From Obrimoposthia wandeli (taxonomy: Eukaryota), in assembly GCA_977020255.1 (NCBI GenBank), contig CDROCS010002686.1:248001-312000 (forward strand): DNA of 64,000 bases, written 5' to 3'. The notes below the pieces were generated by a model, which did not search any database, was not told the origin of the DNA, and saw nothing but the letters and a program-made list of their open reading frames with translations. Of the stretch, positions 9,176 through 62,316 are shown one piece after another (position 1 is the stretch's first letter; every line of letters begins with the position of its first letter). The position numbers were made by a program, and so were the translations under genes.

Positions 9176-11381
9176 CAGTAAAACCTTGCTATACCTGTAT
9201 TTAAGTTAAAGCATACTTTTTTTCTTATATAAGGTCCTTGTTTATAACATAATAAAATAATGTAACAAAAAAATTATTTTTTTATTTAAAAATTTGTTTA
9301 TAAATTTTGAAATAGAAAAATACCTAATGCAGACAGGTAAACAAAAGGACAGAACACTGATTACCGTCAAAAATAAAATAAATAAAAATAGAAACAATAT
9401 GACAAGAAAATCTACACACACAAAACAACTGGCGGATCTCCACAAATACAAACCAGTGTACATTATCCAGGATTATTAAGAACAGACAAGACATTTTTTC
9501 AATGAAGGATATAACCCGTGATACAAAGCTGAATAAAGGGAAATAACCAAGTTTGTAAGAGGTTCTGTTTACATTTTTGCATCTAACAATCTAGCAGCGA
9601 AATCGAAAATCATAAAAGAACATGCTCTTTAATATGGAAAATAGATGGATTTTAAGGCGTTGAATGGATGTTTTGAGAGATTTCAGATAAGGAATAACAT
9701 TAAAAGTTTTAAGATATCAGGTACAGAATCATTATAGCAACTGTAAATGAATGGAAAGAACAGGTATTGCCTCAGTTTCTGGAAGAATACAATGCAGATC
9801 GCTTTGAACGCCAACGAGACAAGGTTATTTTACTAACTATACTTGTCAAAAAATACAGTTTAAAATGGTCTAATAATAAAGATTCAATGAGTAATAAAAA
9901 GATAAGAAAGTTAAAATTTGTTTTTTTGTAATCGTAAAATCACAAAATCCATATTGTTTTCGTATTGTTAAATCTCTTTCAACCGAATATACAAATAATA
10001 GTTCTTCGTGGATGACTATATCAATTTTAATGATTAACTTACTAGATTAAATCAAGAACAGAAAAATCTTTTTGTAAATTGACAATACTTCATGAATAAT
10101 GATTGAAAATTATATTTGGTAAAAGTAATTTTCTCCAATGGGGGCCGCCCCCTGTCCTTTAAAACCATGTATGTGTGTGGAGTGAAATTTCGTGCATGTG
10201 TGTGGAGTGAAATTTAATGTATGTCTCCATTCCACCCAAAGGGGGAAGGAAGGAGGTTACCCCTCACCACATTTTTAAAAAAATTTACTGCGAATCTCAA
10301 AAGTGGTTAGAGAAGACCACGGGAATCCATATTGGCCCCGGCGGCTTATCGCAGACGAGATTTCAAATAATATATTACTACTATTTTTAAGAAAGATTTT
10401 TGATTAATAAATTACTACATGTTAAATATCTATTTATAGGATAAAAAATCGGTCAGATCTATATAATTTAGAGGAGAAAAAAACAAAATACGAGACAAAA
10501 TTATTTTTCAAAATATTTATTAAACATAAAACAATATATTGGCTTCACTCAAAGTCCAAAGAAGCTTCAAAGAAAATTACAGAAGGCTGTTTTAGAACGT
10601 AATAAAAAAATGATGAATGAGGAGGTTGATATAAACGTTTTAGATGAGTTTAATATCAGAGTCGTGGGATACTGTGAGTGGTGTTACAATTAGAAACTGC
10701 ATTATAAAATCCTATAAAAATGATAGTATTTTGAAGTGGTTGAAGATGTTGACTAGAATTCCAGGAAATTCAATTAGGATTGGAAAATAATTCAGATAAA
10801 ATAATCAATCTGAAGACGAAGAGCGCTTTGAAAAGCTCGAGTTTAAAGAACTTTTACAAACCGAGAAAAAGAAAACAGACACAGAAATGCCGGACGATGC
10901 AAACTGATATTTTTGAATTGGAAAAAGTGAAGGTTTTTGAAGCAGAGAAAGCGATAGAAGTTTCAAAACTATTTTTTATCAACAACGAAAGATCAAAAAG
11001 AAAAACATTTGGAGGACTCAATTGAATTTTAAATGAAATGGAATAAAGAAAGGAAGAAATTCGAAGCAGTTTAGTTTGTTTGATTTAAAAAATGAATTAA
11101 TATATTAGTTTATTTTTATTTTTATTACAGTTTTAATATCATGGCATCCACTGATATATATATATATAAAGTTTCTTTAAAATGTGTTTTACTTGAAAAA
11201 TGACTTGGTGAAATTATTCTAATAAATACCAATAATTTATAATGCAATTGATTTAAAAATAAATAAGAATTGATTTAAATTATTTATTAAAGTTTATACT
11301 GAAAATTAAAAAAAAAAAACTTTTTCAGTTATAGCCTGCTTTTTTGTAATTCTAAATTTTACATAATGCGAGGGTTAACTG
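9176..11381 (+). mobile_element. Degenerate Tigger/pogo DNA transposon
   Basis: DFKALNGCFERFQIRNNIKSFKISG (CENP-B-type HTH), NANETRLFY, IDNTS, FKENYRR. TA-CAGTAAAACCTTGC at 9174 and GCGAGGGTTAACTG-TA ending 11383 resemble Tigger TIRs (imperfect pair, boundaries uncertain). Confidence 0.65.
10148..10565 (+). mobile_element. Orphan fragment of the Polinton left end
   Basis: Near-identical by eye to ~12246-12640 (CTGTCCTTTAAAACC..GTGTGGAGTGAAATTT..GAGAAGACCACGGG..GGCTTCACTCAAAGTCCAAAG); lacks the terminal AGTAGG ~35 nt. Confidence 0.9.
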
Positions 11382-12208: not shown

Positions 12209-12290
12209 AGTAGGTGGATGTGTCCGGTTTAATCCACACCCCCTCCCCCCTCTGTCCTTTAAAACCGTGCATGTGTGTGGAGTGAAATTT
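12209..12290 (+). repeat. Left terminal inverted repeat
   Basis: Reverse complement of 27057-27159 with a few substitutions and indels. Confidence 0.9.
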
Positions 12291-12594
12291 TATGTATGTC
12301 TCCATTCCACCCAAAGGGGGAAGGAAGGAGGTTACCGCCCCACTACAATTTTTAAAAATTTTACTGCGAATCTCAAAAGTGGTTAGAGAAGACCACGGGT
12401 ATCCATATTGACCCCGGCGGCTTATTGCAGACGAGATTTCAAATAATATATTACTACTATTTTTAAGAAAGATTTTAGATTAATAAATTACTACATGTTA
12501 AATATCTATTTATAGGATAAAAAATCGGTCAAATCTATATAATTTAGAGGAGAAAAAACAAAATACGAGACAAAATTATTTTTCAAAATATTTA

Positions 12595-12999
12595 TTAAAC
12601 ATAAAACAACATATTGGCTTCACTCAAAGTCCAAAGAGGCTGCATTTTCCCGTCATCAGCAAAATATCCATTGAGACGTATTGAGATATTCCATAGTTCT
12701 TCATCTAGAATTGGAGCAATCAAATATCCTAGATCATCTTTAAAATTCAGACTGGGATCAGTTTCAAGCTGGAAACAATTTCCTTCATATACATAATCAG
12801 GAATGTAAAATCCCAAAATATTTTTCAATTGATCAATATCAGATGTTGTTAAAATTTCGATGAGATATTTATTCTCCACTTTTGATATTTTCACAGGATT
12901 CATAACTCGTATAATTTGATGCCTCTTTAATATATTACATAGTTTTCCTTTTGAAATTCTTTCTGGATAATAAAAATTTACTACACATCTCTTATCCAT
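12595..12999 (-). CDS. Polinton ORF-A, 134 aa, paralogue of ORF-B; possible OB-fold ssDNA-binding protein
   Basis: Open from ATG 12999 (MDKRCV); conserved in copy 2; aligns over ~110 aa with ORF-B. The function is inference. Confidence 0.75.
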   Translation of the reverse strand: MDKRCVVNFYYPERISKGKLCNILKRHQIIRVMNPVKISKVENKYLIEILTTSDIDQLKNILGFYIPDYVYEGNCFQLETDPSLNFKDDLGYLIAPILDEELWNISIRLNGYFADDGKMQPLWTLSEANMLFYV

Positions 13000-13146
13000 T
13001 CTAAAATAAGGAAACTGATTAAAAAAACAATGTTTATAAAAAAATACACATAAGATACATATAAGATACAAATATTTAAAAAATAAAACTGATTATTAAA
13101 TGAAAAAAACATAGTAAAACCGATTACAATTTATTACACGCAAAAG

Positions 13147-13600
13147 TTAAAACATAGAAATATGAGCACGTTCAATTTTCCACATAGGCAACTTTGTCCC
13201 CATTTCATCTTTCTTGTAACTATAAAGTCGAATTGTTACAGTCCATTGCTTCTTTTTCGGAAATGCACCAATATCAACATATCTTCCATAGTCATCTAGA
13301 AATGCTTCATCGGGTCCTCGGATATAAAATTCGTTCTTATTGAAAGTAAAATTCGGAACATGCATTTTCAACTTTCTGTTTAAGATATTGAAAATATGGT
13401 TTTTGAATATTTGATAGATAGTAGCTGAACTTTCTTCTTTCAATTGTCACAGGATTTACTAAAGCAATCAGTTGAGCCTTCTTCAAGAATCTGACTTTGT
13501 ATTTGAAATATTGTTTCACTTCTTCATACATATCCTTATCCGATTCTTCAAACATTTCTATATCTTCCTCATCGCTTAATACCCGTTGGCTATCATCCAT
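13147..13600 (-). pseudogene. Polinton ORF-B, consensus 150 aa, 1-nt insertion near 13360
   Basis: Track ORFs 13337-13630 and 13147-13443 are joined by removing one T (GCATGTT vs GCAGTT in copy 2). Confidence 0.8.
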
Positions 13601-13639
13601 CGTTGATAATTGTCTTTGATATGAATGCATTTACTGTGA

Positions 13640-13860
13640 TTTGTCCTCCAATAGCGCATTCTTTTATACTAATTTATAACAAAGACATGAATCTCATTGG
13701 TTAATACAACTAAAGAATTGAATTTGATTGGACTAAATCCATATTAAAAATCAAATTTGATTGGAAGAAATATATCATCCAATTATAATAGGTTTGCAAG
13801 ATAATTACAAGAAACGTGCAATAAAAAAGCAGGTTCAGACATATATAAAGAAGATTTTAT
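13640..13860. promoter_or_regulatory. Divergent Pol II-type promoter region (ORF-B leftward, TBP-like rightward)
   Basis: TATATAAAG at 13842-13850, 30 nt before ATG 13880; minus-strand TATAAAAG at 13661-13668; CCAAT/ATTGG at 13648, 13696, 13727, 13760, 13779. Confidence 0.55.
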
Positions 13861-13879
13861 AGAATACAATTTTAGTCTA

Positions 13880-14376
13880 ATGAAACTCGTAAATATAAAT
13901 TATAAAGGTAGAACAGAAGATGATGTTTCGTACTTACCATTCAATGAATGGAAGCCGAAATAATATGTGGAAAAGTTTGACAATTTCACAGTTGTTATTT
14001 TTCCTACAGGTTAGTTTTTTTATTTTCATATTGAATTCTTTTAGGAAATTGTCGTGTTATGGGATGCAAAATACCAATACTTGGGTTCAATTTACCATTT
14101 AGAATTCGAATCACTGCAATACAATCAATCACGATTTCGGCTAATCTTGGGAAACAGATAAATATTTTTAAAACTACAGAGAAAATGAAAGAAGAATGCA
14201 TGTTTGAACCAAAAATTTTTCCTGCTCTTAGTTATTTAAAGTTTAAACCGCTATGTGTAAATATATTTTCCAGTGGTAAAGTTATGATATTGGGATTGAA
14301 AAATTTTGATTATCCAGACATTGTTGATTTGATTTTAGAAAATATATCTTATTACATCTTGTTATCTTTTCTATAA
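13880..14376 (+). pseudogene. TATA-binding-protein-like gene, 2 exons (13880-14009, 14045-14376), one premature TAA in this copy
   Basis: Spliced product has two TBP repeats: LVNIN...VVIFPTGNCRVMGCK and IQSITISANL...FEPKIFPALSY...VNIFSSGKVMILGLK. 35-nt GTTAGT..TTTTAG intron. TAA at codon 28 is CAA in copy 2. Confidence 0.85.
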
Positions 14377-14404
14377 ACAAACCCGTTTAAACTTATTTTT
14401 TCAA

Positions 14405-14677
14405 ATGAATAATACTATAAATAGAGACAATGAAGTGAATCGTCTTGCCGACGAAATATTTTCGGGAAAAATTAGGGGTAAAGAAATTTTATCAGAATTA
14501 AAAAATAATGATATAACAAGAGATAACATTGAAATATTGGTTAGATCACACGTTATTCGAGAATTTAGAAATCGTACACAAATAAATAAAATTATAGCCA
14601 AATATTCATTAATTAATTTTTGTATTTCATCTACAATAGCTCTAACATTGTACATTTCAATAAGGAAACTTCTATGA
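14405..14677 (+). CDS. 90-aa protein with a C-terminal hydrophobic segment
   Basis: Intact in both copies; ends YSLINFCISSTIALTLYISIRKLL. Confidence 0.7.
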   Translation: MNNTINRDNEVNRLADEIFSGKIRGKEILSELKNNDITRDNIEILVRSHVIREFRNRTQINKIIAKYSLINFCISSTIALTLYISIRKLL

Positions 14678-14714
14678 TAATATAAACAATATTAAAAATG
14701 AAAGAGTATATGCA

Positions 14715-15362
14715 ATGGAGCTAAATAATAATGCTGTATTTCAAATAGTTGGCCCAAGTGGAAGTGGAAAGACACATTTCGTCTGTAAATTGTTGCAAAA
14801 TGAATCTCTTTTCAAATCTAGTTTCAAAAATATTTATTGGTATCATGGTGGAGGAGGGGAAAGCGGGTTAACCAAAACAGAAGTTTGCAAGTTGAAGGGT
14901 ATAAAATTTATTGAAGGATTTGATGCAAATTGGTGTGAAAGATTGAAAAAAGAAGATGTAATAATAATTGATGATTTGTATGAGGAGGCTAACAAGGAAT
15001 CGGACTTTAATAATTTATTTACAAAGATTGCAAGACATCGTGAAGTTACAGTTATATTTATCACTCAAAATCTGTTTCACCAAGGAGGTCACCATAGAAC
15101 AAGAAATCTTAATGTACATTACTTAGTTTTATTTAAAAATCCTAGAGATCAAACAGTTGTTGATTTTGTGGCCAGACAGGCATTTCCTCAAAATAAGAAC
15201 TTTCTAGTTGATTCATTCCACGATGCTGCTAAACAAGCACATGGGTATATATTTATTGACTTTACACAAGCTTGCCCAGATGATTTACGTGTTTTAACAG
15301 ACATATTTAATTCTAAGGGAGTAACTGTTTATAAACAAATAGAGAACAATTATAAAAAATAA
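14715..15362 (+). CDS. Packaging ATPase (A32/FtsK-like)
   Basis: Walker A GPSGSGKT, Walker B IIIDDL, ITQNLFHQG, RTRNLN, LFKNPRD. Confidence 0.95.
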   Translation: MELNNNAVFQIVGPSGSGKTHFVCKLLQNESLFKSSFKNIYWYHGGGGESGLTKTEVCKLKGIKFIEGFDANWCERLKKEDVIIIDDLYEEANKESDFNNLFTKIARHREVTVIFITQNLFHQGGHHRTRNLNVHYLVLFKNPRDQTVVDFVARQAFPQNKNFLVDSFHDAAKQAHGYIFIDFTQACPDDLRVLTDIFNSKGVTVYKQIENNYKK

Positions 15363-15369
15363 ATTTGCA

Positions 15370-15525
15370 ATGCCTTTTACAAAGTTGGTAGTAAAACTTA
15401 AAGTAAAATCTAAGAAATCAAAAAAAAGACTCATTAAGAAAAAAGAAGTGAAAAAATTAATCAAATCTGTAATTAGAAATAAAAAAAACTTAAATGGCTT
15501 CGAATATAAACAATATTTAAATTGA
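15370..15525 (+). CDS. Lysine-rich 51-aa protein (possible DNA-condensing core peptide)
   Basis: MPFTKLVVKLKVKSKKSKKRLIKKKEVKKLIKSVIRNKKNLNGFEYKQYLN; below the ORF-track cutoff; frameshifted in copy 2. Confidence 0.45.
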   Translation: MPFTKLVVKLKVKSKKSKKRLIKKKEVKKLIKSVIRNKKNLNGFEYKQYLN

Positions 15526-15540
15526 ACCTTTTTAATTAAA

Positions 15541-15869
15541 ATGAAGAAAATACAAAGAAGCATACCCTATATTAAAGCTTTAGTCAAAGCCTCTTCGCAT
15601 AAGAGAATGATTATTCTTAAAGCATTTCCATCTTTTGTTGTAGATGATTTATTGGTAATTTTGTATAATATAGTTTTGGGTTGAGTAAAAGTTGGAAATC
15701 GGACAAATATATTAAAGTAATATAGAAAAACTCTTCTAGATATTGCTAATGTAAAAAGTAAAAAAGGAAACGAAATATTATTCTTAAACAGAATTGTAGT
15801 TTCATAGGGGCTGTTATTCCAGTTGTTGCTTCAATTATCAGTAGTATTATAGCTGCGACACGTTCATAA
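15541..15869 (+). pseudogene. Conserved small Polinton virion protein (pX/'gasderminX'-like), consensus 109 codons
   Basis: KRMIILK..VVDDLL..LYNIVLG..YRKTLLDIA..KRNIILKQN(GG)FIGAVIPVVASII. TGA 15682, TAA 15718 and a 1-nt deletion; copy 2 keeps the QNGGF protease-site-like motif. Confidence 0.7.
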
Positions 15870-15897
15870 ACAATTATTTATAAAATCAGTTAAAGAT

Positions 15898-16116
15898 ATG
15901 GGTGCTAACCCTTCTTTACCTAAATTTAAATTGTCTTTCTATTCAAATTGTTGTAATGGAGAAGATATGGTTCAATCCAAAAGATCCAATTGGCTACACA
16001 GGAGTTTCAAAATTAGCAAAAAGAACAAAACAAAATTACAAGAAAACGCAGAAATGGCTAAGCGACCAGCTACCCTACAGTCTGAACAAGCCGATGAGAA
16101 GAAGGTTTCCAACTAG
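15898..16116 (+). CDS. 72-aa ORF overlapping the integrase start, with MGxxxS and CC motifs
   Basis: MGANPSLPKFKLSFYSNCCNG; open in copy 2 as far as visible (MGTNPS). Confidence 0.5.
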   Translation: MGANPSLPKFKLSFYSNCCNGEDMVQSKRSNWLHRSFKISKKNKTKLQENAEMAKRPATLQSEQADEKKVSN

Positions 16117-16983
16117 AGCTTACAAAACCAGCGGTCCTAATAATTTATGGCAAATGGATTTGATGGAGATGATCCCATATTCTTCCATTAATAAGGGATA
16201 CCGATATATTTTAACATGTATTAATGTATTTAGCAGGTTTGCTCGTACAATTCCAGTTAAAGCAAAGTCTTCAATAGCTATGCTTGAAGCCATTAAAGAA
16301 ATATTAAAAGAGGACATTTCACAAAATGTGCAAACTGATTTAGGAAAAAAAATTATAATAAGCAAGTTAAATCTTTATTTAAACAAAATAATATAAATCA
16401 CTACTCTGTGTTTTCACAGTATAAAGCAGCAGTAGTAGAAAGATTTCATCATACTTTAAGAGATCGAATAAAAAAGTATTTCACAAAAGAAGGAAATAAA
16501 AAATGGATCCAAGTTTTACCTAAAATAATACATGCATATAATCATTCGGAACATAGAGGTCTCAAGGGAATGAGACCTGTTGATGTTACTAATAAAAATT
16601 CTATGGATATTTGGATGAACAGGAATAAAAAAGAAAATATTAAAAAAGCTAAATATAAGAAAAACGAATATGTCCGAATTTCGAAAATTAGCTATACTCC
16701 ATTTATTAAAAACTTTGATCAGAATTGGAGCGATGAAATATTTTGTATAAGTAAAATTGATCAAAAGAGTAATCCAATAATGTATACTATTAAAGATGCT
16801 GACAATACTATCGTTCACGGTAAATTTTACGAGCAAGAACTACAAGTAATATCAAATAAACCTAGCGTTTTCCGTATTCAAAAAATATTAAAATCTAAGG
16901 GTTCCGGTAAACATAAACAATACTATGTTAAATGGCATGGTTATTCAGATCCAACTTGGATATCAGCATCTAATATAATATGA
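15956..16983 (+). pseudogene. Retroviral-type (rve) DDE integrase with C-terminal chromodomain; frameshift at ~16350
   Basis: WQMDL, QTDLG, KAAVVERF catalytic motifs; FRIQKILKSKG..QYYVKWHGY chromodomain. Confidence 0.95.
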
Positions 16984-17998
16984 AGTCTATGTATATGGTT
17001 TTATCTAGTAACGGATGTCCGAAGACTCAACCAGATAATTACGCTAGTAGCTTTATTATCGATTGGGAAAATCCTATAAATCTCCAAGGAGAATGGGAAG
17101 AGGATTTTACAGAATTTTCCCTTTATTATTCTCCAATTACTATCAGAAAAAACTAACATATTTCGTTTACAAAAGAAGTTGATCATGAAAAATCAATTGA
17201 AGTTGTGATTGGGTTTGATAGTAAAGGAAAATTCTATTACAATTGTATAGATAAAGAAGTGAAAGTAATATATGAAAAAGACAAATTATATTTGGATATG
17301 ATAGAGAAGCTCTTCAATTCGGTTTTGACAGTGGTCATGTACTAGGTATGAAAAGATCTGATATAGCCTCATCTAAATAGTTTAAAAATGTTCCCGATAG
17401 AGTAACAAAAGTGTTTTTAGTTGAAACGAGACCAAAGTATGTAGTGGAACTGAAAATGTTTTCAAAATATTATAAATTAGATAGTGAAGTGAATTTCTGT
17501 AAATTAATACAGAAGGAATGTAGTGAATATTTCGATAAATGTGTAACATTAAAAAATGGTAAAATAACGTTTACAGTAAAAAGCAATTTAATACGAGTTT
17601 TATTTGATGATAAACTCGCTAAAAACCTTGGTTTAAACAGAAATACCTTTGAAACCCATACAATAAAAACCATAAAAGCTAAAAATAAGACAAAACTTTT
17701 AAATATTGTTAATCATTTATATATTTATACTAATTTAATAGAACCAACGCTTGTAGGAGGACTGCGAGTTCCAAGTTTGAGAACAATATGGATATCTAAA
17801 AATGAAACTAGAGATGGGGACGCTGTCGGTATGTGTATAGATCAACCAATGTATCTTCCAGTTTCTCTCTTTTCTATAAACAATATTGAAGTAAATATTA
17901 GAGATTATTCCGGACAACTAATAGATTTCACGTACGGGGCCAAGACAAGTTTAACAATACATTTAAGAAAACAAAATGGCGAATCCAGCAATAATTGA
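16980..17998 (+). pseudogene. Minor capsid protein (penton)
   Basis: MVLSSNG..PDNYASSF..NPINLQGEWE at the N-terminus; LYIYTNLIEPTLVG..LRTI..MYLPV..IEVNIRDYSGQLIDF..LTIHLR at the C-terminus; internal stops; ATGA overlap with the integrase stop. Confidence 0.85.
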
Positions 17999-18353
17999 AG
18001 CTTATAGTCAAAGTCAACAAGGTGGAGAATTACCATATTTTGTTGGTAAACAATATAGATCTGGCTGGCTTAGAACATTAGGTAGATTTGCCTTTCCCCT
18101 TTTAAAGAGACTCGGGTGATTTATATCAAAATTAGGAAAGGACTACCTTTCATCTAAGGACAATAAACTAATACCAACTTTTAAGAAGCATGCGCTTGAT
18201 GAACTTGATAATGTTTTACCTGAAGTTGCTAATTTGATTAGAAAACGTAAATGAAATAAAAGCCAAGGATGTAGTGGATTTAAACGTAAATAGAAGCAAA
18301 AAATTAATATAAACAAACGTAATAAAGTTGAAGGAACAATATTTGCAAAATGA
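17976..18353 (+). pseudogene. pVII-like core protein
   Basis: YSQSQQGGELPYFVGKQY.SGWLRTLGRFAFPLLK pattern; three in-frame stops; stop overlaps the major capsid ATG. Confidence 0.75.
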
Positions 18354-19093
18354 GTTGCGCCAAAACTGAATTGTGTATTTTTGATAAACAACTTCCACAA
18401 GTAGTTGTAGATAATGCTTCCTTTGAAGAAATATTTCTAGTTAACTCAGTTTCAGGAACCACTTTAACCGATTTAGAATTTAATATTAATGGTTCCAATA
18501 GCGAGTATTTAGATTTGAATGATACTTTGCTTTATGTTCAAATAAAAGTATTAAATCGGGATGGTACTAATTTAGATGAAAATGCAGATGTAACACCTGT
18601 AAATTATCTCTTTAATTCTTTATTTAGTGATGCCATTGTTACTCTTAATAATGTCAAAATTGAAGGTGGAAATTCTTCCTATGCTCATAAAGCTTTGATT
18701 GAAAGTCTTTTAAATTATAGCACTGATACTTAAAATACCAATTTGGCAACCATTGGTTATGATTAAACTGTCGCAACTCGCAAAGAATGGATTGCGGGTT
18801 CTAAAGCTTACGAAATGTCTTTGAGATTGAATTTCTTTGAACAACTGAAATATTTAATTCCCGGTGTTAATGTACATCTTCGTTTGAAACGTAATAAATA
18901 TAATTTTTCTTTGATAAGCACAGACGTTCTAAAACCTAGACTTGATATTTTGGATGCAAAATTGTATGTCCGAAGAGTTAAAACCGAGCAATCAGTTTTA
19001 ATGGCACATAATATAGGAATGGAAAAAAACAATGCTTGTTATCCTATTAGAAAAACTAAACGATTAGTGTGTTATAAAAATAAATATTTTTAA
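18350..19093 (+). pseudogene. Major capsid protein (double jelly-roll), 3'-truncated
   Basis: CAKTELCIF, LEFNING..YLDLNDTLL, PVNYLFNSLFS, LLNYSTD, GVNVHLRLKR, AHN..NACYPIR; stops at 18731 and 18764; similarity ends after ~240 codons. Confidence 0.9.
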
Positions 19094-19333
19094 TGTTTTA
19101 TTTTGAATAATTTTTTTCAATCCCTAAAAATATAAGGATAATAAATAATAAAAGACATAAGACGATATTTTTTTTAATACATTTATTAAAAACAACATCA
19201 CAATGAGATCTGTCAGCAAAGATAAGGTCCATCCTAAAAAATGTTTCGAAATAACAAAAAGTTAGAGTCAAGGTGCCATAGGGATCTAAAATTTTAAAAA
19301 ACTAATCTAAAAAAATCAAAAAATGAAAACCGT

Positions 19334-21966
19334 TTAAATTCGGAAGTGTCCATAAGCCAGGCTAGTGTTATTTTCTACCCAAAAGCGCTTGTCGTCATAA
19401 CTACTCAAAGCGATTTTGGTTGATTTATGGGAATACAGTTGATGGGCTCTTGAAATAAATCTAGTTTGCTCAACGCTTTCAATACACCGAGTATCATAAA
19501 CTTTCCGGTAAGCCTCATGTGTAAGATTGTTTCTTCCCACACCCTTTGCTCTCATTGAACATGTATTATTAGATGCATGTAAACTGTAGCATTTAGGGCG
19601 TAGGAAAATACAATCATCATACGTAGCCTGTCCCTCGCTTTCATCCTTAAATTTCCCGATAATATCCTTTAAACTCATAGAGTGTAGAGGATGGTTAGCG
19701 GGATATTTATGGGTATCTAATAAGTTGTCCCTAAACATTGCCGGTAATAATTGATTATTTAAACTAACATTTTTACATTCTAAAAAGAAAGAGTCAGTGT
19801 CCCCAGCCGCGAGTTTGATCTCACAATTGAATTCTCGTCGATATTTCTCCAATTCTATGTATTGAAGCTCGTACATTCTGAGTTTAGAAATGTCTAAAAC
19901 CGTTTGACCTATATAACTCGGTCGATCGAGACAAATACTCTGTTTTCCTAATAACACTGCTACCAAGTCATCTGCAATTGTAAAACTACGCTTGAAGTTG
20001 TACTTGCTAGTATATGTTATTAGTTTACGCTCATCATTGCAAAACCGTAGACAAATACGTTTCCGCAAGTCCTCTACAGTTTTTCCAAAGAGGCTATTAC
20101 TTTTTAACTTGTAAAAATCCCGATCGAATTTGCTAGTGGCCAGATTACGTTTTCTAAAATTCTTCTCAATATAGTCTTTAAACACAAAGTTTTGACTGAA
20201 TCTTATAGCACGATGAATTCGAGTAACTTTCGCTCCCAACTTTAAGTAGAATTGAAGAAGCCGCCAATGCACAACATAATTCAATTTGTCTTCATGGGTT
20301 AACAATAATTTCTTAACCTTTGAATTAGGTGGGCATTGATGAACAGGCGCTACTGGAAGATCATCTTTATCATGCACATTGGAAGGGATTGTTAAGTCAA
20401 CCTCAACCAAATAGCCGATGTCTGATGAAACTGTATCGACAGTAGCCAAATCTGTCATCAACTTATTCAACTCTTCCTCATCATAAACCCACTTAAAGTT
20501 GGCATGAGGTAGAGGTTGAGTAAGCGCCCACCCATACAAATTATTAATATCGATGTACAGATGTTTGTTGACAAAAGTCATTCCACCACGTATACCATAA
20601 TCATACATTTGATACATTGCGGGTTCTTGCAGTAACTCGATATTAATTTTAAGAGTTTTTTTATTGCTGTTGCCCATGAAAGACCAGGTAAACTAAAGAA
20701 ATGCATGGGATCTAGCCCATCTTCTGCTAAAGACTTTACACGAAAGGACTCAAAAACATCAGCTAAAAGATAAATGTATAATTTCATATAATAAAGCATA
20801 TATTCTAAAAGATTTCGAAAATTATTCGCCCAAAATGTACGGGCCTCATTATAGTAGACTTACACTTTCAAATTCAGTTATGGGTGGGATTTCTGTGATA
20901 TTTTCTAAATCTGTAAAGGTTTTCGCAAATTTATACGGAAAAATCCCCTTATCATTAACCGAAGCTGGGAACACTGACTGTGTGATAGGCCATGCATTTA
21001 AAGATGCCGTTAAATTTTTTAAAGACCCCCTCAAAAACTGCAGAGAATCTATGAATCTTAAACTGCAGAATTCAGTATATGCAGTTAAAGATAAATATTT
21101 CTCTGAAGTTTGAGGTATACATGAAATTTCCCAAGAGCTTAATGTACCCAACGCATATTTAAGTATATGATGCAAATCATATCCTTTGAGGTTATGAAAC
21201 ACGATGGGAATTCGTGGTTTTTTAGGGAGACGACGGCCAAGGTTACAGAGGTTGCACGCTGCTCCCAAGTATCGCCCCATAACATGATCGTGATCTCTGA
21301 CTAACTTAGACTGGGTTCCACACAAATAACATAATCTACAAGAATTAAAATTAATCCAGTCTACGCCTGTCATGATCATTGCTTGATGAGCATTAAGATC
21401 ATACCACGGTTTGACAATTGTTGTTCCTAATTCTTCTAATTTTAACATAAAATCTAAAATACAATTTGGACCGGAAAATTTATGATACTGTGTAATATTG
21501 GGGCCTAAGAATAGTAGTCCTGCCGAAGCCGGTAGGTGAATACTCTCATACTGGTCGTGCAATGCTAAAATTGACTCAAAATCGGCATACACCCTGAATT
21601 CCACGGGTATGCATTTTGCCCAATCCCTGAATTTTAAATCCTTATCCTTAGGCATGCTATATAGCGTATTGTCATCAGGATTCAGTGAACATAATGTCAG
21701 ATGTTTGCTGTAAGAGAGCTCGGATCGGAATCCATGCAAACATCTATGTCACCACTTACACCTTGTCCTAACCGTAGGCTCCATTATCTAAATTTAGAAG
21801 ACGATCTAAACTGGGAATTGCAGCATATGGGTATATTTTATTCTGTTCAAGCAAAATTAAGTTGACCTGAGTCCCCTCATTTTTGCTCCTATAAATTACA
21901 TCTACAAAAGGATTTTTAAATATTTCTTCATCTGTTACATTAACTGGGATATCAGTATTATATTTA
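19334..21966 (-). pseudogene. Protein-primed DNA polymerase B, exonuclease and polymerase portion
   Basis: RVYADFES, RDHDH..GRYLG..CNL, HNLKGYD, FIDSLQF, KGIFPY, LLADVFE, YIDINNLYG, KLKSNSLFGKT, GDTDSF, FLRPKCYS; several stops, frameshifts and deletions. Confidence 0.95.
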
Positions 21967-22026
21967 TTTTTTTATTTATCAAACATTTATTAATGTGAAC
22001 GCAATCAATTTCTCAAAGGCCCCATT

Positions 22027-22557
22027 CTACTTTACGTGGGTCCATGTCTCAATATGCTGCTGGTCCTCGGTAGCAGTAACAGTAACTGCTTGGGGTCTCG
22101 GTTTCGTCATTGGAACTTTGAGTAGGTCCGCGTACGTTTTCAGTACTCTTACGTCATCGCCGGGTACAGTTTTGGGCCCCTCGGCAGTCTCGATTGTAGC
22201 GGGGCCACCTTTTCGGCCATTACCCGTAACCGACCGTAGGTCGGTTTTCGGTTACGATTTCTCCTCCTGTCCATGTCGAAGTTTCGAACTCTGACCACCA
22301 CTATTCAAATCTCCCAACAAATCTGTTCGATTGTTGATAAAAGGTCTCTTTTCGGCATACGAGTCTGCTGCTTCCTTTAGACTAATGTTGTTCTTTGCCA
22401 TTACAAATTTGTCGATAATACCAGACAGTATCTTTGCGCACTCCTCGTTGACATCATAGTTTCGCAGTAACCCAAAAATATCGTCTTGGGCCCCCTGCAG
22501 GAGGTTATAATTACTCCCGTTGTTTACCTGCGCTTCATTATTTCTCTTCCTGACCAT
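22027..22557 (-). pseudogene. Second ORF of the insert, 176 codons with one internal TAA at 22252-22254
   Basis: MVRKRNNEAQ...EEKS*PKTDLRS...DQQHIETWTHVK*; same frame on both sides of the stop. Confidence 0.5.
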
Positions 22558-22605
22558 GTCGAAGTTTTCAGCTCTTATTATTTTTATTCAGATATTAATA
22601 AACAA

Positions 22606-22808
22606 TTTTTTTTTTTTTTTTTTTTTTGAATCAAAAGGCTCATTTTCGGCACACGAATCTGCTGTTGTTTGTTGGTTGTTGGTTGTTGGTTGGTGTTTGG
22701 TGGTTGTGGGTTGGTGTTTGGTGGTTGGTGGTTGTTGGTTGTTTTTTGTTGGTTGTTGGTTGTTGTTGTTGGTTGTTGGTTTTTGTTGTTGTAGTTTTGT
22801 TTGTTTTT
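22606..22808. repeat. T22 tract plus (GTT/GGTT)n low-complexity repeat
   Basis: 22 consecutive T at 22606-22627; GTTGGTTGTT-type repeats at ~22665-22808. Confidence 0.9.
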
Positions 22809-23225
22809 TTATTTTACGTAGGTCCAGGTCTCAATCTTCTCCAGCTCCTCGGCTGACAACTTATCCAGGATCCCAGTTGTATGACTCGAGAATTTAGCCC
22901 ACGAGGCCGCTGTATGTTCGATGGTTTTCAGGGTTAGTCGGATCTTGATATCCTTGATCTCCTTTGCTTTAAAACCAGCATTTGCAAAGATCCGGTTATT
23001 GATTTCAGGCCAGAAGCCGAGAGTCCCGATCCTTAGCGCGTAGAGTTGCACGAGTTTTTCTGGGTGGCGGGTCTTTAGCATTTCAACGAGCTCCGCGTAT
23101 TTGGACATAGTTTCGGTGAGCCTCAGATCAAATGACATGTCAGAGTCAAACGGGATCTTGATCTCTATCAGCATCACCTTATAGTCAGTCTCGATCGTTA
23201 TGTCTGGTCGTGGTCTGCAGCTGTT
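22809..23225 (-). CDS. Restriction-like (PD-(D/E)xK) endonuclease domain of a non-LTR retrotransposon, in frame with the pPolB N-terminus
   Basis: CRPRPDITIETDYKVMLIEIKIPFDSD...KYAELVEMLK..VQLYALRIGTLGFW...; ends KIETWTYVK*. Confidence 0.8.
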   Translation of the reverse strand, partial: NSCRPRPDITIETDYKVMLIEIKIPFDSDMSFDLRLTETMSKYAELVEMLKTRHPEKLVQLYALRIGTLGFWPEINNRIFANAGFKAKEIKDIKIRLTLKTIEHTAASWAKFSSHTTGILDKLSAEELEKIETWTYVK

Positions 23226-24957
23226 TTTACTCAAGTTATTAAGATGTTCAAATCTTGATATCGCAGTTAATTTAACAGGAAAATCTATTCCATGATACTG
23301 CAATTCATTTAAAAAAGGGGTATATTTACTGACACGCTCTCTATGTTCAGTAATTACACCCCTTTTGAGGATGGCCAACACGCTATACAGAAAGCAAAGT
23401 TTATCACTGTTTTGTATGTTAACAATGGAACGTGAAAGTTGAAGAGATCTAGGTGAAGGAATGTATGAACTCCCTGAAAGATATATCATGTCAGTGAACT
23501 TTGTTAGGACAAAGCTAACATCATGAATTCTAACTAGAGTCCATCCACTACTTAACTCGCTATAATTAGCAATTTTTTCATCTAGGTTTCTTCCAATTTC
23601 AGTTACAAAATTATCATAGAAAACAGTTGCTTTATGTGAAATTACCCAAGTTTTAGTTTCCTCATTGACATTTTTAAACTGCACTGTTGCGCAAAATTGA
23701 ACCTTAGCCTGTCCTAATTTAGTCACTTCTGATTTTAAAAGATTTTCAATATTTGAATTTACACCTACGTTTAATAAAATTTCATTTCCTAATGGCACCT
23801 TAACTATAACATATTTATTATTTAGGTGATACTCTATAGTAGCACCGTTTTCTCTACGTTTTTTTGGTGGGACCTTATTAAGAAATTGGCCTCGCCTCTT
23901 TCTTCCTATAGTCGCTGACAAACCTCCCCCTAATTGAACGGGAAGACAACTAGTTATATTAATCGCAGCTGAGGTGGAATGTGCTGCTTTTGGTGATGCT
24001 GCCGATGTTGAGGCAATTGCAACTGAGGTGGAAGGTGCTGCTATTGGACATGCTGCCGATGTTGAGGCAATCGCAGCTGTAGTAGTAGATGCTGCTGTAA
24101 TAGATGCTGCTGTAGTAGATGCTGCTGTAGTAGATACTGCTGTAGTAGATGCTACCGCATATTACAGTAGATGCTGCATTTGAAGTAGGAGTAGCTGAGG
24201 TAGGAGCTGACCTTGCCGATGAAGAAGCGGCTGTTGTAAAGGTTGATGCTGCTGAAATTTTTTTTTTAAAATATTATTACCTCTAAGACGTGCTAAAATC
24301 GATGTAGGCACTCGTGATGGGGGAGGCATAGCTGTCGTAGCGGATTACGGCTGTATCACGGTATTTCCTGAATAAAAATTTTAAAAAATATATATATAAT
24401 TACAATTTATAAAAAGAATCTAAAAAATAATAATAAAAATACCTAATGAAGGCAACTGGAGCTGGAATGAAGTCCTCTTCATTTATGGAATCCATCCAGC
24501 TGTCGTCCGTTATCTCGACGAAATCGGATTCCTCGATGGTCTCCAACCAAGAGTTATCGCTCCACTGAGGCTGCTCCATCTCGAAATCTGACTGGGTGAT
24601 ATTTTCTATCCAGTCATTGTTTGAGAATTGGGTTGCTGGCGCCATCTCCTCAAAATCTGTTTGGGATATGTCATTCATCCACTCATTGTTAGTCATTTGA
24701 GTGGATGGTGCAGCAGAATCAGGATCCGGGAGAGAAGGACCAATGGCAGGACCGTAAACGGGTTGAATCACTGCAACTGGAATTGGAGCAGGTGCTGGAG
24801 CGTCCTGCGAATCGCGCACTAATTGCACAATATCCCTCTTCTTGTTGTTGGCCGTGAAACAGGATAGATGAGCTCGATGTTCCCTCTTTCTTAAGTCCCC
24901 TTTCTTCTAATTTATTCTGATCTTCGTTACCAAACTTTGCAATTTAATGAATTCCAT
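23226..24957 (-). pseudogene. pPolB 5' region: N-terminal extension (acidic repeats, Ser/Thr/Ala linker, QLGGG site) and terminal-protein-like region; putative introns 24442-24368 and 24280-24252
   Basis: ATG 24957 in frame with ORF 24828-24400; SGSSYIPSP..IVNIQNSDKLCFLYSVLA..ERVSKY..GIDFPV..FEHLN is the canonical pPolB N-terminal block; GT-AG short introns; stops and frameshifts. Confidence 0.7.
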
Positions 24958-25039
24958 TTTTTAATTATGAAGAGGTTAATAAATTTGAACCTATATATAT
25001 AAATTTAAGATATTTTTAATCCAATCACAGGCAATTACA

Positions 25040-26986
25040 TTATATGAAATTCATTTTCGGCTTCTTCGGTTGGTTTGTAGCAATTGTCCTTCCCTCAGGG
25101 TTTGGCAATATTTGCTGCAACGTTTTGGGAGGAGGTGCAGCCGATGTTGATGGCCCCGACATAGAAGCAGTAGCCTTCCTCTTCCGTGGAGCTTTCTTCT
25201 GTTTCTCCTCCTTCTCACGCTGAAGCTGGCGTGAGACGGCATCCTGTTGCCTAGCGAATCTGGAAGCATTGCCGGTGTATCCAGTTCCGCCAGGAATTCG
25301 TCCAATCCAGCTTCATCCCAGGTCCTCTTTAAGTTCTGGCTGGTTGTGGGACGAGGAGAAGCCGGTAATGTCTCCTGCAGGCGTCGTTGACTTGATAGCG
25401 GACTAATCTCGATCGGTGAGACTGGGATCCTCTCGTATAGAATTGTACCGTCGTCCACTGGAGATGGGGGAATCTCCTGCCGTTCAATCACCGCCTCAGA
25501 ATAATGGCCAATTGAGGTGCTACATTTTTTTGAGCGCCTCGTCTTCTTCACATCTGCTCGCTTCGTCCGTTTCTTGGGAAAAGGAGTAATTTCTCCCCAA
25601 GCCTCCTCAATTATCCAGACAGGTTCCTGCAAAGAAAACATTAATAAAATTTTTAATAAAATTCATTTATATAAAAAATATTTAAATATCTAAAATTTTA
25701 CCTCAATAATCTGATACGGAATTTTTTCCTGCCGCTCTATCGTTACTTCGGTCGATTTGAGCAGACAAGATTTCGCCTTTCTAAGACGCCTCGTCCTCCG
25801 TACAGCAGCCTGCCTCGTTCGCTTCTGCGGGAAAGGATAAATTTTGTCCCATTTCTCCTCAGTTAATTGTATTGGTCCCTGACCCAAAAAACATAAATAA
25901 AATTTAAAAATATAAATAATTTACCTCGATGACGGGCAGGTTAGCCTGTTTCGCCAACTTGGCCTTCTTCCGATGGACCGTGTGGGTTTTGACCCGATGG
26001 CGTCGAGGTTTCTTAACCGCCTCTTGTTTCCTATCGCCGGGTAGTCTGAGAGTTGCCTCCTCCCAAATTTCCTCCACCAATTCGGCTTCCTATGTGAATA
26101 ATTAAAATAATTAACTAATTTATAATAATATACCTCAAATTTAGCCGGAGTCGGTAGGTATCGCTGATCACTCCTGGGATCATCCTGGCTATATTGACTC
26201 GCCAAGTACTGCGGTTCAATCAGCCTCTCCACCGTAGTCACTGACGGTGCCAAATCCAGTTAAAGTTTCTAAAAATGAAAATAAAAAACATTTTAAATAA
26301 ATTAATAGACTAACCTCATTCGTCGCCTTTATTCTCCTAACAGGACGTATCGGAGATTGCGGTCTTTTGAACGAATCAGGCACCATATTGTCGGCTATCG
26401 GAGTTGGAGTTGTAGAGGGAGTGACACCATCCAAATCGTCGGTGAACAGGCGCCACTCGTCCTCGTCCAATTCTGCCACCATCGAATCGTTGGCTCCTGG
26501 GGCTCCGATACTTGGCTGTATCCATTCGTCGATGAATGGAGTCAAGTCCTCCTCACCATCCGACGGAACGTCATCGGTGAATAGCTCCTCGTCTGAGTCT
26601 GGTGCGAGTACTATCTCCGGCTGAGACAGCGGGATCAATTTCCAGGGGCATTTGATTGCTGCCTCAAAATTCTGGAAGAGATTGGATCTCCTTGCTGCTA
26701 CTGCTGAAGTTGCCGGACGATTGGGTTTTGTGTTTTGCCTGGGAGTATAGTCTTCCCAATTCTCAATCGAATCCTGACTAGTCAGATCGATATATTGGGA
26801 TCTCTGTATACCACCTGTCACGCTCATTGGTTCTTCTCTCGGAGTTGAGCTGGCCAATGGCGGTTCTTCTAGCAATTTTTTCGCGACCCTGTATATGTGT
26901 TGCTCGTCAAACCACCGCTGGCCCGGAGGGCACGCTTTGACCCACTAAACGGCCTCCCAGAACCTTCCTCACATTTTTGGGAGCAT
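25040..26986 (-). pseudogene. Five-exon Polinton gene (26986-26315, 26268-26134, 26089-25925, 25878-25702, 25626-25040) encoding a disordered protein with basic repeats
   Basis: Four GT-AG introns (46, 44, 46, 75 nt), all phase 0; exons 1-4 are 672, 135, 165 and 177 nt (multiples of 3); three premature stops and one frameshift. Confidence 0.8.
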
Positions 26987-27056
26987 TATGAGATTTTAAA
27001 TTTTAAAGGGTGTTATATGGGGTTAATTAGTTTTTGAGTGTTGGAAAGGGGGGTAG

Positions 27057-27159
27057 AAAATTTCACTCCACATACATGCACGAAATTTCACTCCACACAC
27101 ATACACGGTTTTAAAAGACAGAGGGGGTGTGTGGATTAGACTGGACACATCCACTTACT
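27057..27159 (-). repeat. Right terminal inverted repeat
   Basis: Reverse complement AGTAAGTGGATGTGTCCAGTCTAATCCACAC..CTCTGTCTTTTAAAACCGTG..GTGGAGTGAAATTT. Confidence 0.9.
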
Positions 27160-35750: not shown

Positions 35751-36141
35751 TATGTAAGACCTAGAAATTTGGTTACGTATTCGAGTGACATCAAAAATAT
35801 TTATTGAACATTTAAAATGATTTCACCACACAAATAAAAATATATGTGTGGTAGTCTGTAAATTTCTGTTACTATCAATAACTTTTACTATTATATTCTT
35901 AAAAATAAATATTTTAAAGTAACTTTGAAGTAATTATTATACATTATGATATTTTTTTGGTAATTCGACTTCAAGAAAATTGCAAAAAGTTTACTTTCAT
36001 AAAATATTAAATTATCTAGCTTTGAAAGGGTAACCCCCATATGTAATCCATTAATTGTGATTCGGCCAATTGTCTAATTACACAAGGATTTATCAACGAA
36101 AATTTGTTTCTAGGTCATTTATGACAGATTCGTTGATGCAG

Positions 36142-39100
36142 TAGTCAGACCGGCAACAACTCTGGTGTAGGGACAGATCCCCGCAGTATCATTGCGGGCA
36201 TAAATGATGCCGGCTGCTACGATACCTATTATTGCGATGTGGATAGTCTAGCGGGAGCACAGCACAGCGTGATGGTGGCCCTTCTCATAGTTGCCTTGAT
36301 TGGACTGGCCAGCAACATATATTGTCTTGCCAAGATGTCCATTGGACACAACTGGCGCTTCTTCTTCCGAGCCAACCAATTTGGGCCGCACTTGGCTCTT
36401 CTCATTATCTGTGACTGTGGGCAGTTGTTGTTTGCACTTTTTCTCCAGGTAAGCTTTGTCACACGACTCACAGTCACTGTCACATGGTCAAACAAATATA
36501 TAATAACATGATCATACAGTCACATGGCCACAAAGTCATATGGTTACATTTTAGCATGGTCACACAGTCACATAGCCATACAGTAGCATGGCCATATAAT
36601 CACATGGGCACACAGTCACGTAGCCATACAGTAGCATGGCCATACAATCACATGGTCACAGTCACGTAGCCATACAGTAGCATGGCCATACAATCACATG
36701 GTCACACAGTCACAACCATACAGTAGCATGGCCACACAATCACATGGTCACACAGTCACAACCATACAGTAGCATGGCCATACAATCACATGGGCACACA
36801 GTCACGTAGCCATACAGTAGCATGGTCACTGATTCACATAGCCACCCAGTCCCATAACCATACAGTAGCATGGCCACCCATGGTAACAGTCACATGGCCA
36901 TACAGTTAAATGATCACACAATCACATAGCCACCCAGTCACATATAGCCATACAGTAGCATGGCCACCCATGGTAACAGTCACATGGCCATACAGTAAAA
37001 TGATCACACAATCACATAGCCACCCAGTCACATAGCCATACAGTAGCATGGCCACACGATCACATGGCCACACTGTCACATAACCATACTGTAGCATGGG
37101 CACACAATCACATGGTCACACTGTCACATGGTAACACTGTCACATGGCCATACAGGTACATGATCACACTGTCACATGGTCACACTGTCACATAACCATA
37201 CTGTAGCATGGGTACACAATCACATGGTCACACAGTCTCGTAGCCATACAGTAGATTGGCCACACGATCACATGGTAACATGGCCACATGATCACACAGT
37301 CACATGATCACACAGCCACACGGTAACACAATCACATGGTCACACAGTAGCATGGGCACACAATCACATGGTCACAGTCACATAACCATACAGTAGCATG
37401 GGCACACAGTCACATGGTCACACAGTCACATGATCACACAGTAACATGATCACACAGTCACATGGTCACACACGATCACATGGTCACACGATCACATATG
37501 GTAACACTGTCACATGGGCACACAATCACATGGTCACACAGTCACATAACCATACAGTAGCATGGGCACACAATCACATGGTAACACAATCACATGGTCA
37601 CACAGTCACGTAGCCTCTCTATTCAGGTTTTACCTCCGGTTGTGGCTGGCCATAGACACAAGGATCAGCTTGTCGTCTACCAACGTTACACCTTCCGCCT
37701 AGTACCGGTGTTGCTACCCTTGTTGGATCTATGCTGTCTTCTCGTCAGCTGGCTTCTAATAGCCATGCTCGTGCAAAGGAGCAACACCACACGACACTGG
37801 CTCCTTCTAGAAGTGAGTGGCATGTTCATTTAGTTTATATAATAATCGTATAAAACTCCATCATATTTACGTCATGTCCCCATTAGTTTGTTTGTCCATT
37901 CGTGTGAGTTCATTATCTGTATAGACGAAGATCCAATTTCAATAACTTCTTTTGAATATTACCATATATGAAAATATTCAATTAATTCAGACGTCCAACT
38001 AAAATTGTGTGTGATTTAATTATGAATTCATTGAATTTCCTTCTAAAGGAAATGTGCAAATTTTTGTCTCTAAATCTGTCTACAAATATGCAGTCAGTAA
38101 TGGTCACATGGCCGGACGTGGCGGTGTGCGTCTGTAATCCAACTACTAGGAGGCCGGGCGCATCAACTAAAATCAGTGAAATATGATTAAAGATGTGAAG
38201 TTCTATAATTTTGTTTTGTATAATAATTACATATATTTTTCAAAAAAATCATTCATTATAATTTGTAAAATAAAATTTTTAGTTTTTGTTAAATTGAAAA
38301 CTTCATTTAACACCAATAAAGTTAATCCACATTAAAGGTTTTAAAATGTAAAACAGATAACACAATTTCATAAGCTTGTAAAAATAATTAACACATTCAA
38401 AATGAAAGTAAGATAAAACTAACTGAAAACCTCTCATTAGTAGAAACAATAATTAGATGAATAATACTAAAGTGAAAGTAAATGCATGATTTCTTTTTAC
38501 GGAACATAATAACAATAATATAGTTAATATAGCGTCTATATATGATTTATTACTCATAAGCACTTCCTGTTTTCGATTATTTTTCGTCTTATTTTCTGAA
38601 TAGTAAAGTCTTCAAATGATTCTTGACATTTTCAACATTGTTACAGTTTCTTATATCCATCGGTTTATGGTCGTAAACATTTGGATAATAAATTTCAAAT
38701 ATGCCATAACTCTGTTTGTTATTTGATAATCTATTAATCAATTTGCATTCGTCATCGTTGCTCCTAAGATGCATATACACGCTCACTGCATCAGGCTCAA
38801 GAACATCATATATATATTTGGGCTTTTGTGAGAGAATACATCTTTTGTAATAAGCCGGATTTTGAATAATAATTTCGCCATAATAGTCCACAAATCCAAT
38901 CAAAATAAACCGGAATTAGAATTCCAAGATTTTCGCAAATTAGTCTAATACAACACATTAATAATACATTACTGACTGCATATTTGTAGACAGATTTATA
39001 GACAAAAATTAGCACATTTCTTTTAGAAGGAAATTCAATGAATTCGTAATTAAATCACACACACTTTTAGTTGGACGTCTGAATTAATTGAATATTTTCG

Positions 39101-61537: not shown

Positions 61538-61815
61538 CATTGATAATTGTCTTTGATATGAATGCATTTACTGTGATTTGTCCTGCAATGGCGCATTCTT
61601 TTATACTAATTTCTAACAAAGACATGAATCTCATTGGTTAATATAACTAAAGCATTGACTTTGATTATACTAAATCCATATTAAAAATCAAATTTTATTT
61701 GAAGAAATATATCATCCAATTATAATAGGTTTGCAAGATAATTACAAGAAACGTGCAATAAAAAGCAGGTTCTGACATATATAAAGAAGATTTTACAGAA
61801 TACAATTTTAGTCTA

Positions 61816-62316
61816 ATGAAACTCGCAAATATGAATTATAAAGGTAGAATAGAAGATGATGTTTTGTACTTACCATTCAATGAATGGAAGCCGAGACAAT
61901 ATGTGAAAAAGTTTGACAATTTCACAGTTGTTATTTTTCCTACAGGTTAGTTTTTTATTTTATTTTCACATTGAATTCTTTTAGGAAATTGTCGTGTTAT
62001 GGGATGCAAAATACCAATGCTTGAGTTCCAATTACCAATTGGATTTCGAATCACTGCAATACAATCAATCACAATTTCGGCTAATCTTGGGAAACAGATA
62101 AATCTTTTTAAAACTGCAGAGAAAATGAAAGAAGAATGCATGTTTGAACCAGAAATTTTTCCTGCTCTCAGTTATTTGAAGTTTAAACCGCTATGTCTAA
62201 ATATATTTTCCAGTGGTAAAGTTATGATATTGGGGTTGAAAAACTTTGATTATCCAGACATTGTTGATTTGATTTTAGAAAATATATCTTATTACATCTT
62301 GTTATCTTTTCTATAA
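61816..62316 (+). CDS. TBP-like protein, intact, 153 aa, exons 61816-61945 and 61985-62316
   Basis: No stop after splicing the 39-nt GTTAGT..TTTTAG intron; two TBP repeats. Confidence 0.85.

Follow-up and report, generated by a model that had tools for sequence, protein, structure and literature searches.

Does a Polinton in the genome of Obrimoposthia wandeli carry its own TATA-binding protein (TBP), is the gene spliced, and what would such a protein do for the element? A first-pass annotation of a 64,000-nt stretch of that genome (the window, taken at its full length) read one gene as a spliced, minimal TBP homologue and suggested that it acts as a promoter-recognition factor or as a TBP decoy.

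The TBP gene and its carrier element

The predicted spliced product matches TBP far above chance in both family and structure. With its stops written as X, the read-through translation of gene copy 2 matches Pfam PF00352 at E 1.5e-12, with a TBP domain score of 47.6 bits against a curated cut-off of 22.9, and a PDB sequence search with this copy returned 35 TBP-type matches (best E 3.7e-13). Its AlphaFold model (X at stops; pLDDT 93) is weakest in a loop made of the 13 intron-derived residues and matches human and yeast TBP from one end to the other (VIA Z 13.5, rmsd 2.5 and 149 residues against human TBP), the next unrelated fold standing at Z 6.7. For P0007, a homologue without the intron, the model has pLDDT 97 and reaches Z 13.5, and both models show a two-lobed saddle in a single chain. 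As modelled, the protein is a shortened two-lobed TBP. Hfq and FGF matches were at chance level and were discarded.

The residues picked out by the first-pass annotation are as it described them: repeat 2 keeps both Phe and has QS for QN, and repeat 1 keeps N and VIF. Helix H2 of repeat 1 does appear lost, with no helix between strands 57-64 and 77-90 of the copy 2 model, no helix of at least four residues in the H2 region of either the copy 2 or the P0007 model, and an inter-repeat linker of 18 residues against 31 in host TBP. On the DNA face, a profile alignment of 87 short-form members in yeast numbering shows these changes at presumed DNA-contact positions: V71N (97%), V122R (99%), T124M (100%), N159S (99%), I194R (95%), V203C (99%) and L205N (100%), while N69, F116, F190, P191 and F207 are retained at 92-100%. 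The four-Phe set of canonical TBP is incomplete, with an invariant Pro at the yeast F99 position in the profile alignment, and the DNA kink may therefore differ. Both Glu of the acidic TFIIB stirrup are present in 97-98% of the 87 members and are both retained in 82/84 motif matches among the genome copies. At one position a Ser in the window's family (84/84 motif matches) replaces the Arg found in 95% of the wider family. A longer subgroup (~165 residues; L156-L180, proteins such as P0046) keeps an H2-like stretch and has the same changed DNA face together with the YATAAACR motif described below; its elements carry a PLA2-like domain and C2H2 genes.

The gene lies within a Polinton (Table 1) that has protein-primed PolB, a retroviral-type integrase, an A32 ATPase, a double-jelly-roll (DJR) capsid gene and terminal inverted repeats, the last at 10148-10215 and 27058-27125 (94%) with a matching left end near 12250. 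The capsid ORF of a related locus, L104, has a DJR cluster as its Atlas neighbour (score 0.98; PF21738 on 65% of members), and the major capsid gave no PDB sequence match. For the adenovirus-type protease the host genome yielded no PF00770 match, the control being silent as well, and the gene is present in relatives L105 and L170. A second Polinton copy, with 93% likeness along 3.9 kb, begins near 60132. The window also holds a solo second left end at 10148-10569, 2 kb before the main left end, an additional PolB fragment at 467-1079, and exon-like frames at 36137-44653 that may belong to a membrane receptor of the host and enclose a 16-nt tandem array (36457-37615).

Table 1. Positions in the window of the Polinton genes, promoter words and YATAAACR sites
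Position	Strand	Feature	Basis or remark
12209..27150	.	Polinton copy 1, approximate extent (~15 kb)	Inverted-repeat arm 27058-27125 matches left ends
13031..13038	-	YATAAACR, 39 nt before minus-strand ORF at 12999	
13668	-	TATAAAAG of divergent minus-strand gene	Seen directly
13696..13783	.	Four CCAAT/ATTGG words; divergent promoter with minus-strand gene starting 13630	Seen directly
13842..13850	+	Canonical TATA box TATATAAAG, 38 nt before ATG; likely host-read TBP promoter	In 57/61 copies
13872..13877	+	Presumed initiator-like word TTAGTC; central A 32 nt past first T of TATA	TCAGTC in 42/53 copies
13880..14009	+	TBP gene copy 1, exon 1 (130 nt); premature TAA at codon 28 (13961-13963)	
14010..14044	+	Predicted phase-1 GT-AG intron, copy 1, 35 nt, in Gly codon of S4-S5 hairpin	Sequence comparison
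14045..14376	+	Exon 2 of TBP gene copy 1: last part of repeat 1, then repeat 2 in full	Pfam TBP E 1.1e-10
14372..14379	+	YATAAACR over TBP stop, before 90-aa ORF at 14405	58/61 copies
14681..14688	+	YATAAACR before packaging ATPase	
14715..15362	+	A32-like packaging ATPase	Pfam Pox_A32 E 1.4e-6
15330..15337	+	YATAAACR within last ATPase codons (YKQ)	
15505..15512	+	YATAAACR before next small ORF	
15865..15872	+	YATAAACR before integrase region	
15956..16983	+	Integrase with chromodomain, two frames	Pfam rve
16912..16919	+	YATAAACR within integrase end, before penton-like gene	
16980..17998	+	Penton-like gene, broken	Labelled by gene order and likeness to related locus L104; no library match
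17875..17882	+	YATAAACR within penton-like gene, ~100 nt before pVII-like ORF	
18308..18315	+	YATAAACR 42 nt before major capsid ATG, within upstream ORF	
18350..19093	+	DJR major capsid gene, broken and shortened	60% to L104 ORF
19334..23738	-	Protein-primed PolB in pieces, including endonuclease VII/HNH-like stretch	Pfam DNA_pol_B_2
61778-61786	+	TATA of TBP gene copy 2	
61816..62316	+	TBP gene copy 2: exon 1 61816-61945, intron 61946-61984, exon 2 61985-62316	Exons both open

A profile search for the TBP family gave 57 clusters at E<1e-30, and the metagenome set comprises 169 confirmed stretches, of which the best 80 were kept. Core Polinton genes occur in 41 of these best 80 loci, and in 27/36 of those of at least 3 kb. 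Whether the TBP gene always adjoins the ATPase had been raised at the outset; it often does (within 1.6 kb upstream in 25/28 loci holding both), though not always. In a tree of 200 rows and 148 columns, with few cellular rows and with 20 near-duplicates and short hits left out, 186 element TBPs make up a single clade (SH-aLRT 98) that excludes the TBPs of the host, of other eukaryotes and of archaea. On this comparison of sequences the TBP is a gene of a wide Polinton clade and not a one-off capture. Besides its canonical TBP, the host has one paralogue in head-to-head arrangement and others that are divergent (L181/L182, L183, L184, L185/L186), L184 lying near Polinton fragments. The divergent minus-strand partner gene of the window (13147-13630) consists of two overlapping frames with its own TATA and no Pfam match, and a relative of it often lies directly upstream of TBP in metagenome loci (13/80; best 80 of 169). 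Accessory genes in relatives include BIR-RING (IAP-like; L218:7191-8087), RING (L152:1710-2168), a ubiquitin-conjugating enzyme and KilA-N (L122:225-719, L159/L160).

The predicted intron

The intron coordinates, GT-AG ends and lengths (35 nt and 39 nt) of the first-pass annotation are correct, and the intron is in phase 1. Excising 61946-61984 (39 nt) from copy 2 gives an open frame of 153 codons with two TBP repeats, intact as claimed, and the 4-nt indel between the copies falls within the intron. Two alternative excisions (96-99 nt) also open a frame in copy 2 but delete conserved strands. The statement that both unspliced copies end at an in-frame TAG needs amending: the intron TAG is present, but in copy 1 it is preceded by the TAA at codon 28, and the copy 2 intron contains TGA besides TAG. 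Because of this TAA, no intron choice opens copy 1.

We surveyed 70 loci picked by their ATPase, of which 61 held the TBP gene and nine, with the gene partial or absent, were dropped. GT-AG ends are conserved in 59/61 copies and intron lengths range over 33-40 nt. No copy is open without splicing (0/61), and exon 1, the first 100 exon-2 codons and both splice sites are intact in 39/61. Indel events number four in exon 1 and 50 in exon 2, 36 of the latter being one shared 2-nt insertion near 14366, ~10 nt before the TBP stop (36/61 copies), which alters the last residues only. Splicing is strongly inferred, and well supported, because five intronless homologues show a gap of exactly 13 intron codons relative to copy 2, because the intron length is not a multiple of three in 56/61 copies, and because GT-AG inserts of unrelated sequence occur at the same codon in two other families of the host genome and in metagenome contig L152. 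With its GT-AG ends, frame-free length and conserved position, the insert is very likely a spliceosomal intron. The site is uninterrupted in 77/80 metagenome loci (best 80 of 169) and in host TBP. The best tree does not unite the four genes that have the intron, although a topology grouping them is not rejected (p-AU 0.24). The host genome contains at least four TBP-bearing Polinton families, three with the same-codon intron and one without it, and the intronless family has no Gly at the intron codon. We also considered as intron evidence 12 database proteins that start just past the intron site, and rejected them, as they are scattered in the tree with no clustering.

The exact exon-intron-exon border pattern has 5,878 matches in the genome (reversed control 0; the count may include haplotype duplicates). 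All belong to one family, which has expanded greatly, and the element makes up a large part of the host repeat load. In four read runs from one sample, element coverage is even and DNA-like, and the predicted junction is absent among the 15 joints listed (2,593 further joints exist).

That the insert is something other than an intron, and the gene a dead passenger in the window's family, is hardly credible, although selection on the gene within this family looks weak. Copies 1 and 2 differ by 5 synonymous and 17 non-synonymous changes in the TBP gene and by 10 and 9 in the ATPase (p 0.06), variants common to at least five genome copies are purifying-looking but few (4 against 2), and singleton variants are neutral (pN/pS 0.89; 61 genome copies). 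No precise intron loss was found among genome copies either, a short-gap pattern giving 4 matches that are all partial deletions. A dead passenger nevertheless fits poorly with splice-site ends kept in 59/61 copies, with both exons open in 39/61 if spliced and in none unspliced, with unrelated GT-AG inserts at the same codon in three other families, and with the exact 13-residue gap against five intronless homologues.

Two promoter classes and the probable role of the element TBP

These Polintons have two promoter classes, divided by gene type. The promoter of the TBP gene is likely of host type (TATA and initiator), where the TCAGTC/TTAGTC word, which lies at the distance expected, is initiator-like. 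Canonical TATA lies within 80 nt of 23/52 TBP genes among de-duplicated relatives (background 261/4157, 6%), the other 29/52 having none at that distance.

The second class is marked by YATAAACR. Among the best 80 of 169 loci, the 7-mers most enriched over a Markov-2 model are TATAAAC and ATAAACA, and both are biased toward the gene strand (179 vs 31 and 211 vs 54, respectively). In de-duplicated relatives, YATAAACR is present within 80 nt upstream of 11/12 ATPase, 10/11 major capsid and 5/9 penton-like genes, of 8/21 integrase and 2/7 pVII-like genes, and of 0/13 PolB genes. It precedes none of the TBP genes (0/52; random windows 225/4157). Its presence differs between TBP genes and ATPase plus capsid genes with p 1e-16, in a comparison where the motif was first spotted by eye in some of the loci later counted, many loci share studies and some ORF starts are uncertain. 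The distance from motif to next ATG peaks at 30-39 nt (62/208 sites), and the sequence downstream of YATAAACR showed no bias toward an initiator-like word. Where the motif falls within coding sequence, the codon choice that it fixes occurs in 19/21 against 35/89 cases and in 14/15 against 4/36. Nine sites lie in Polinton copy 1 of the window.

The motif could in principle be a poly(A)-type 3′ signal, given that 43/208 sites are followed by a stop codon within 10 nt, or a Forkhead site, to whose consensus ATAAACA conforms; the TBP would then do another job, for example terminus binding in replication or packaging. We regard this as very improbable. Sites before capsid and penton genes sit well inside the upstream reading frame, and AATAAA is symmetric (442 vs 426), which led us to reject the poly(A) signal. 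The Forkhead site was rejected on the strand counts of GTAAACA, which is unbiased (35 vs 33), and of the non-Forkhead ATAAACG, which is biased (60 vs 7).

We consider it probable, from the sequences and by analogy with herpesvirus vTBPs, that the element TBP is the Polinton's late-gene switch, made early and reading YATAAACR. Host TFIID would fire the canonical TATA promoter of the TBP gene, and the host would splice the resulting early transcript. Late expression of the packaging, integrase and capsid genes would follow once the small TBP had bound the variant signal, YATAAACR, and drawn in TFIIB and RNA polymerase II of the host. The earlier proposal of a promoter-recognition factor thus survives by inference with a different likely target, YATAAACR before packaging and capsid genes in place of the TATA at 13842-13850.

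TBP and TFIIB are a textbook pair that requires DNA. No TFIIB was found in 22 window frames or 65 neighbouring ORFs, where a very diverged one could be missed, and the whole genome gave 12 TFIIB matches against thousands of TBP copies. Taken with the retained stirrup, the lack of an element TFIIB points to use of the host's. Basic residues of H2 bind TFIIA, Mot1, Brf1/2 and TAF1 (PMC7221094), so loss of the helix would free the element TBP from these partners and may allow escape from Mot1/TAF1/Brf1/TFIIA control.

An alternative assigns the reading of YATAAACR to host TBP or a paralogue, alone or with another element protein, with the element TBP boosting all element promoters unspecifically. 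YATAAACR departs from the TATA consensus mainly at one position, and the host has several TBP paralogues. By our position mapping, the C of YATAAACR presumably equals the C(-25) of structure 1qn3. That structure, according to its title, holds wild-type plant TBP crystallised on a C(-25) TATA variant; host TBP may tolerate C. The tie between motif and TBP, moreover, appears as a co-occurrence scored in TBP-bearing Polintons only: every Polinton family sampled in the host genome has TBP, host-genome searches for other PolB/ATPase types led to TBP-bearing relatives wherever the locus reached the gene, and IMG/VR scans (TBP, ATPase and capsid queries) and phage records yielded no TBP-less relatives. 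We still think a host reader unlikely. The first base is C in 61/205 sites, a second departure from TATA, the polar changes on the DNA face are near-invariant, and the promoter classes split by gene type. Three of the changed residues, I194, V203 and L205, are the ones through which TBPm3 acquires its altered TATA specificity (PMC1636458). That TBPm3 generally disfavours a C among the last four bases (PMC1636458) also counts against a host reader.

A decoy or repressor, the other function suggested at first, would occupy TATA boxes or sequester host TFIIB through its acidic stirrup, damping host or early element transcription. Retention of the stirrup alongside loss of the co-activator surface H2 fits such a role, as does the missing intercalating Phe. 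Yet it leaves unexplained both a strand-specific motif placed 30-40 nt before capsid and packaging genes and never before TBP, and the new invariant polar residues on the DNA face, and we find it distinctly improbable.

Building on the late-gene switch, we hold in even balance the broader proposition that a Polinton lineage runs an early-to-late cascade through one 150-residue TBP of altered specificity, a private promoter and host TFIIB/RNA polymerase II, ignoring the regulators of TBP, and that the same-codon intron in at least four families makes this cascade splicing-dependent.

Comparison with known systems

The first-pass annotation knew of no TBP among Polinton genes. That claim is weakened by the abbreviation 'TBP' in the map legends of Starrett 2021 (PMC8502044 Fig. 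5; bioRxiv 10.1101/697771 Figs 5-6) for MELD/adintovirus-like elements. Those elements have adintovirus-like PolB, and the likeness to ours consists in the label, the available parts of that paper describing no family, intron, promoter or mechanism. The text of its supplement, slides and tables aside, contains neither TBP nor TATA. Elsewhere in the accessible Polinton and adintovirus literature, Repbase reports and subscription journals aside, our searches found no mention of TBP beyond these legends; the available portions of PMC10748475, PMC11161782, PMC11131425 and bioRxiv 10.64898/2026.10.13.758929 have no promoter term and no TBP, and TATA is absent in the three checked for it.

The proposed switch bears on the way capsid genes are activated in Polintons and on the need for a helper virus, and it is testable as one protein and one 8-base site. 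Should the broader proposition of a cascade be true, no smaller TBP-based late switch would be known, and these elements would be marked as helper-independent nuclear viruses. The proposed switch would also provide a natural TBP with changed specificity and without the Mot1/TAF1/Brf1 surface, useful for dissecting initiation.

With cellular and archaeal TBPs (PF00352; PDB 1cdw, 1ytb, 1mp9) the element TBP shares the two-lobed saddle, N69/F116/F190/P191/F207 and the acidic stirrup. It departs from them in size (~150 residues), in lacking the N-terminal tail and, within repeat 1, both H2 and most or all of H1, in the replaced F99 and seven changed DNA-face positions, in a structural identity of 22-28% and in forming a separate clade.

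Viral TBP-like proteins are known in giant viruses, poxviruses and herpesviruses (PMC7221094, PMC12529657). Those of giant viruses (Nucleocytoviricota) have also lost the N-lobe regulator surface, and Foldseek matches of the element TBP to them reach E 8e-9. As described in the available text of PMC7221094, however, they are mostly paired with a viral TFIIB and have a diverged stirrup, whereas the element TBP has a conserved stirrup and no element TFIIB was found in the frames and ORFs searched; identities are 10-20%.

The logic is likely shared with the herpesvirus vTBPs (KSHV ORF24, EBV BcRF1, HCMV UL87), in which a TBP mimic, a TATA-variant late promoter and host RNA polymerase II work together (PMC12529657). 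KSHV ORF24 uses extra Asn on its DNA face for TATT late promoters (PMC12529657). In structure searches the element TBP matches herpes proteins poorly, at E 1.5e-3 or worse, and the two differ in build. ORF24, a large protein of several domains that works in a complex of six members, is without the TFIIB-binding acids and reads TATTWAA (PMC12529657). The element TBP is not a vTBP but a bare 153-codon domain that keeps the TFIIB-binding acids and whose likely site is YATAAACR.
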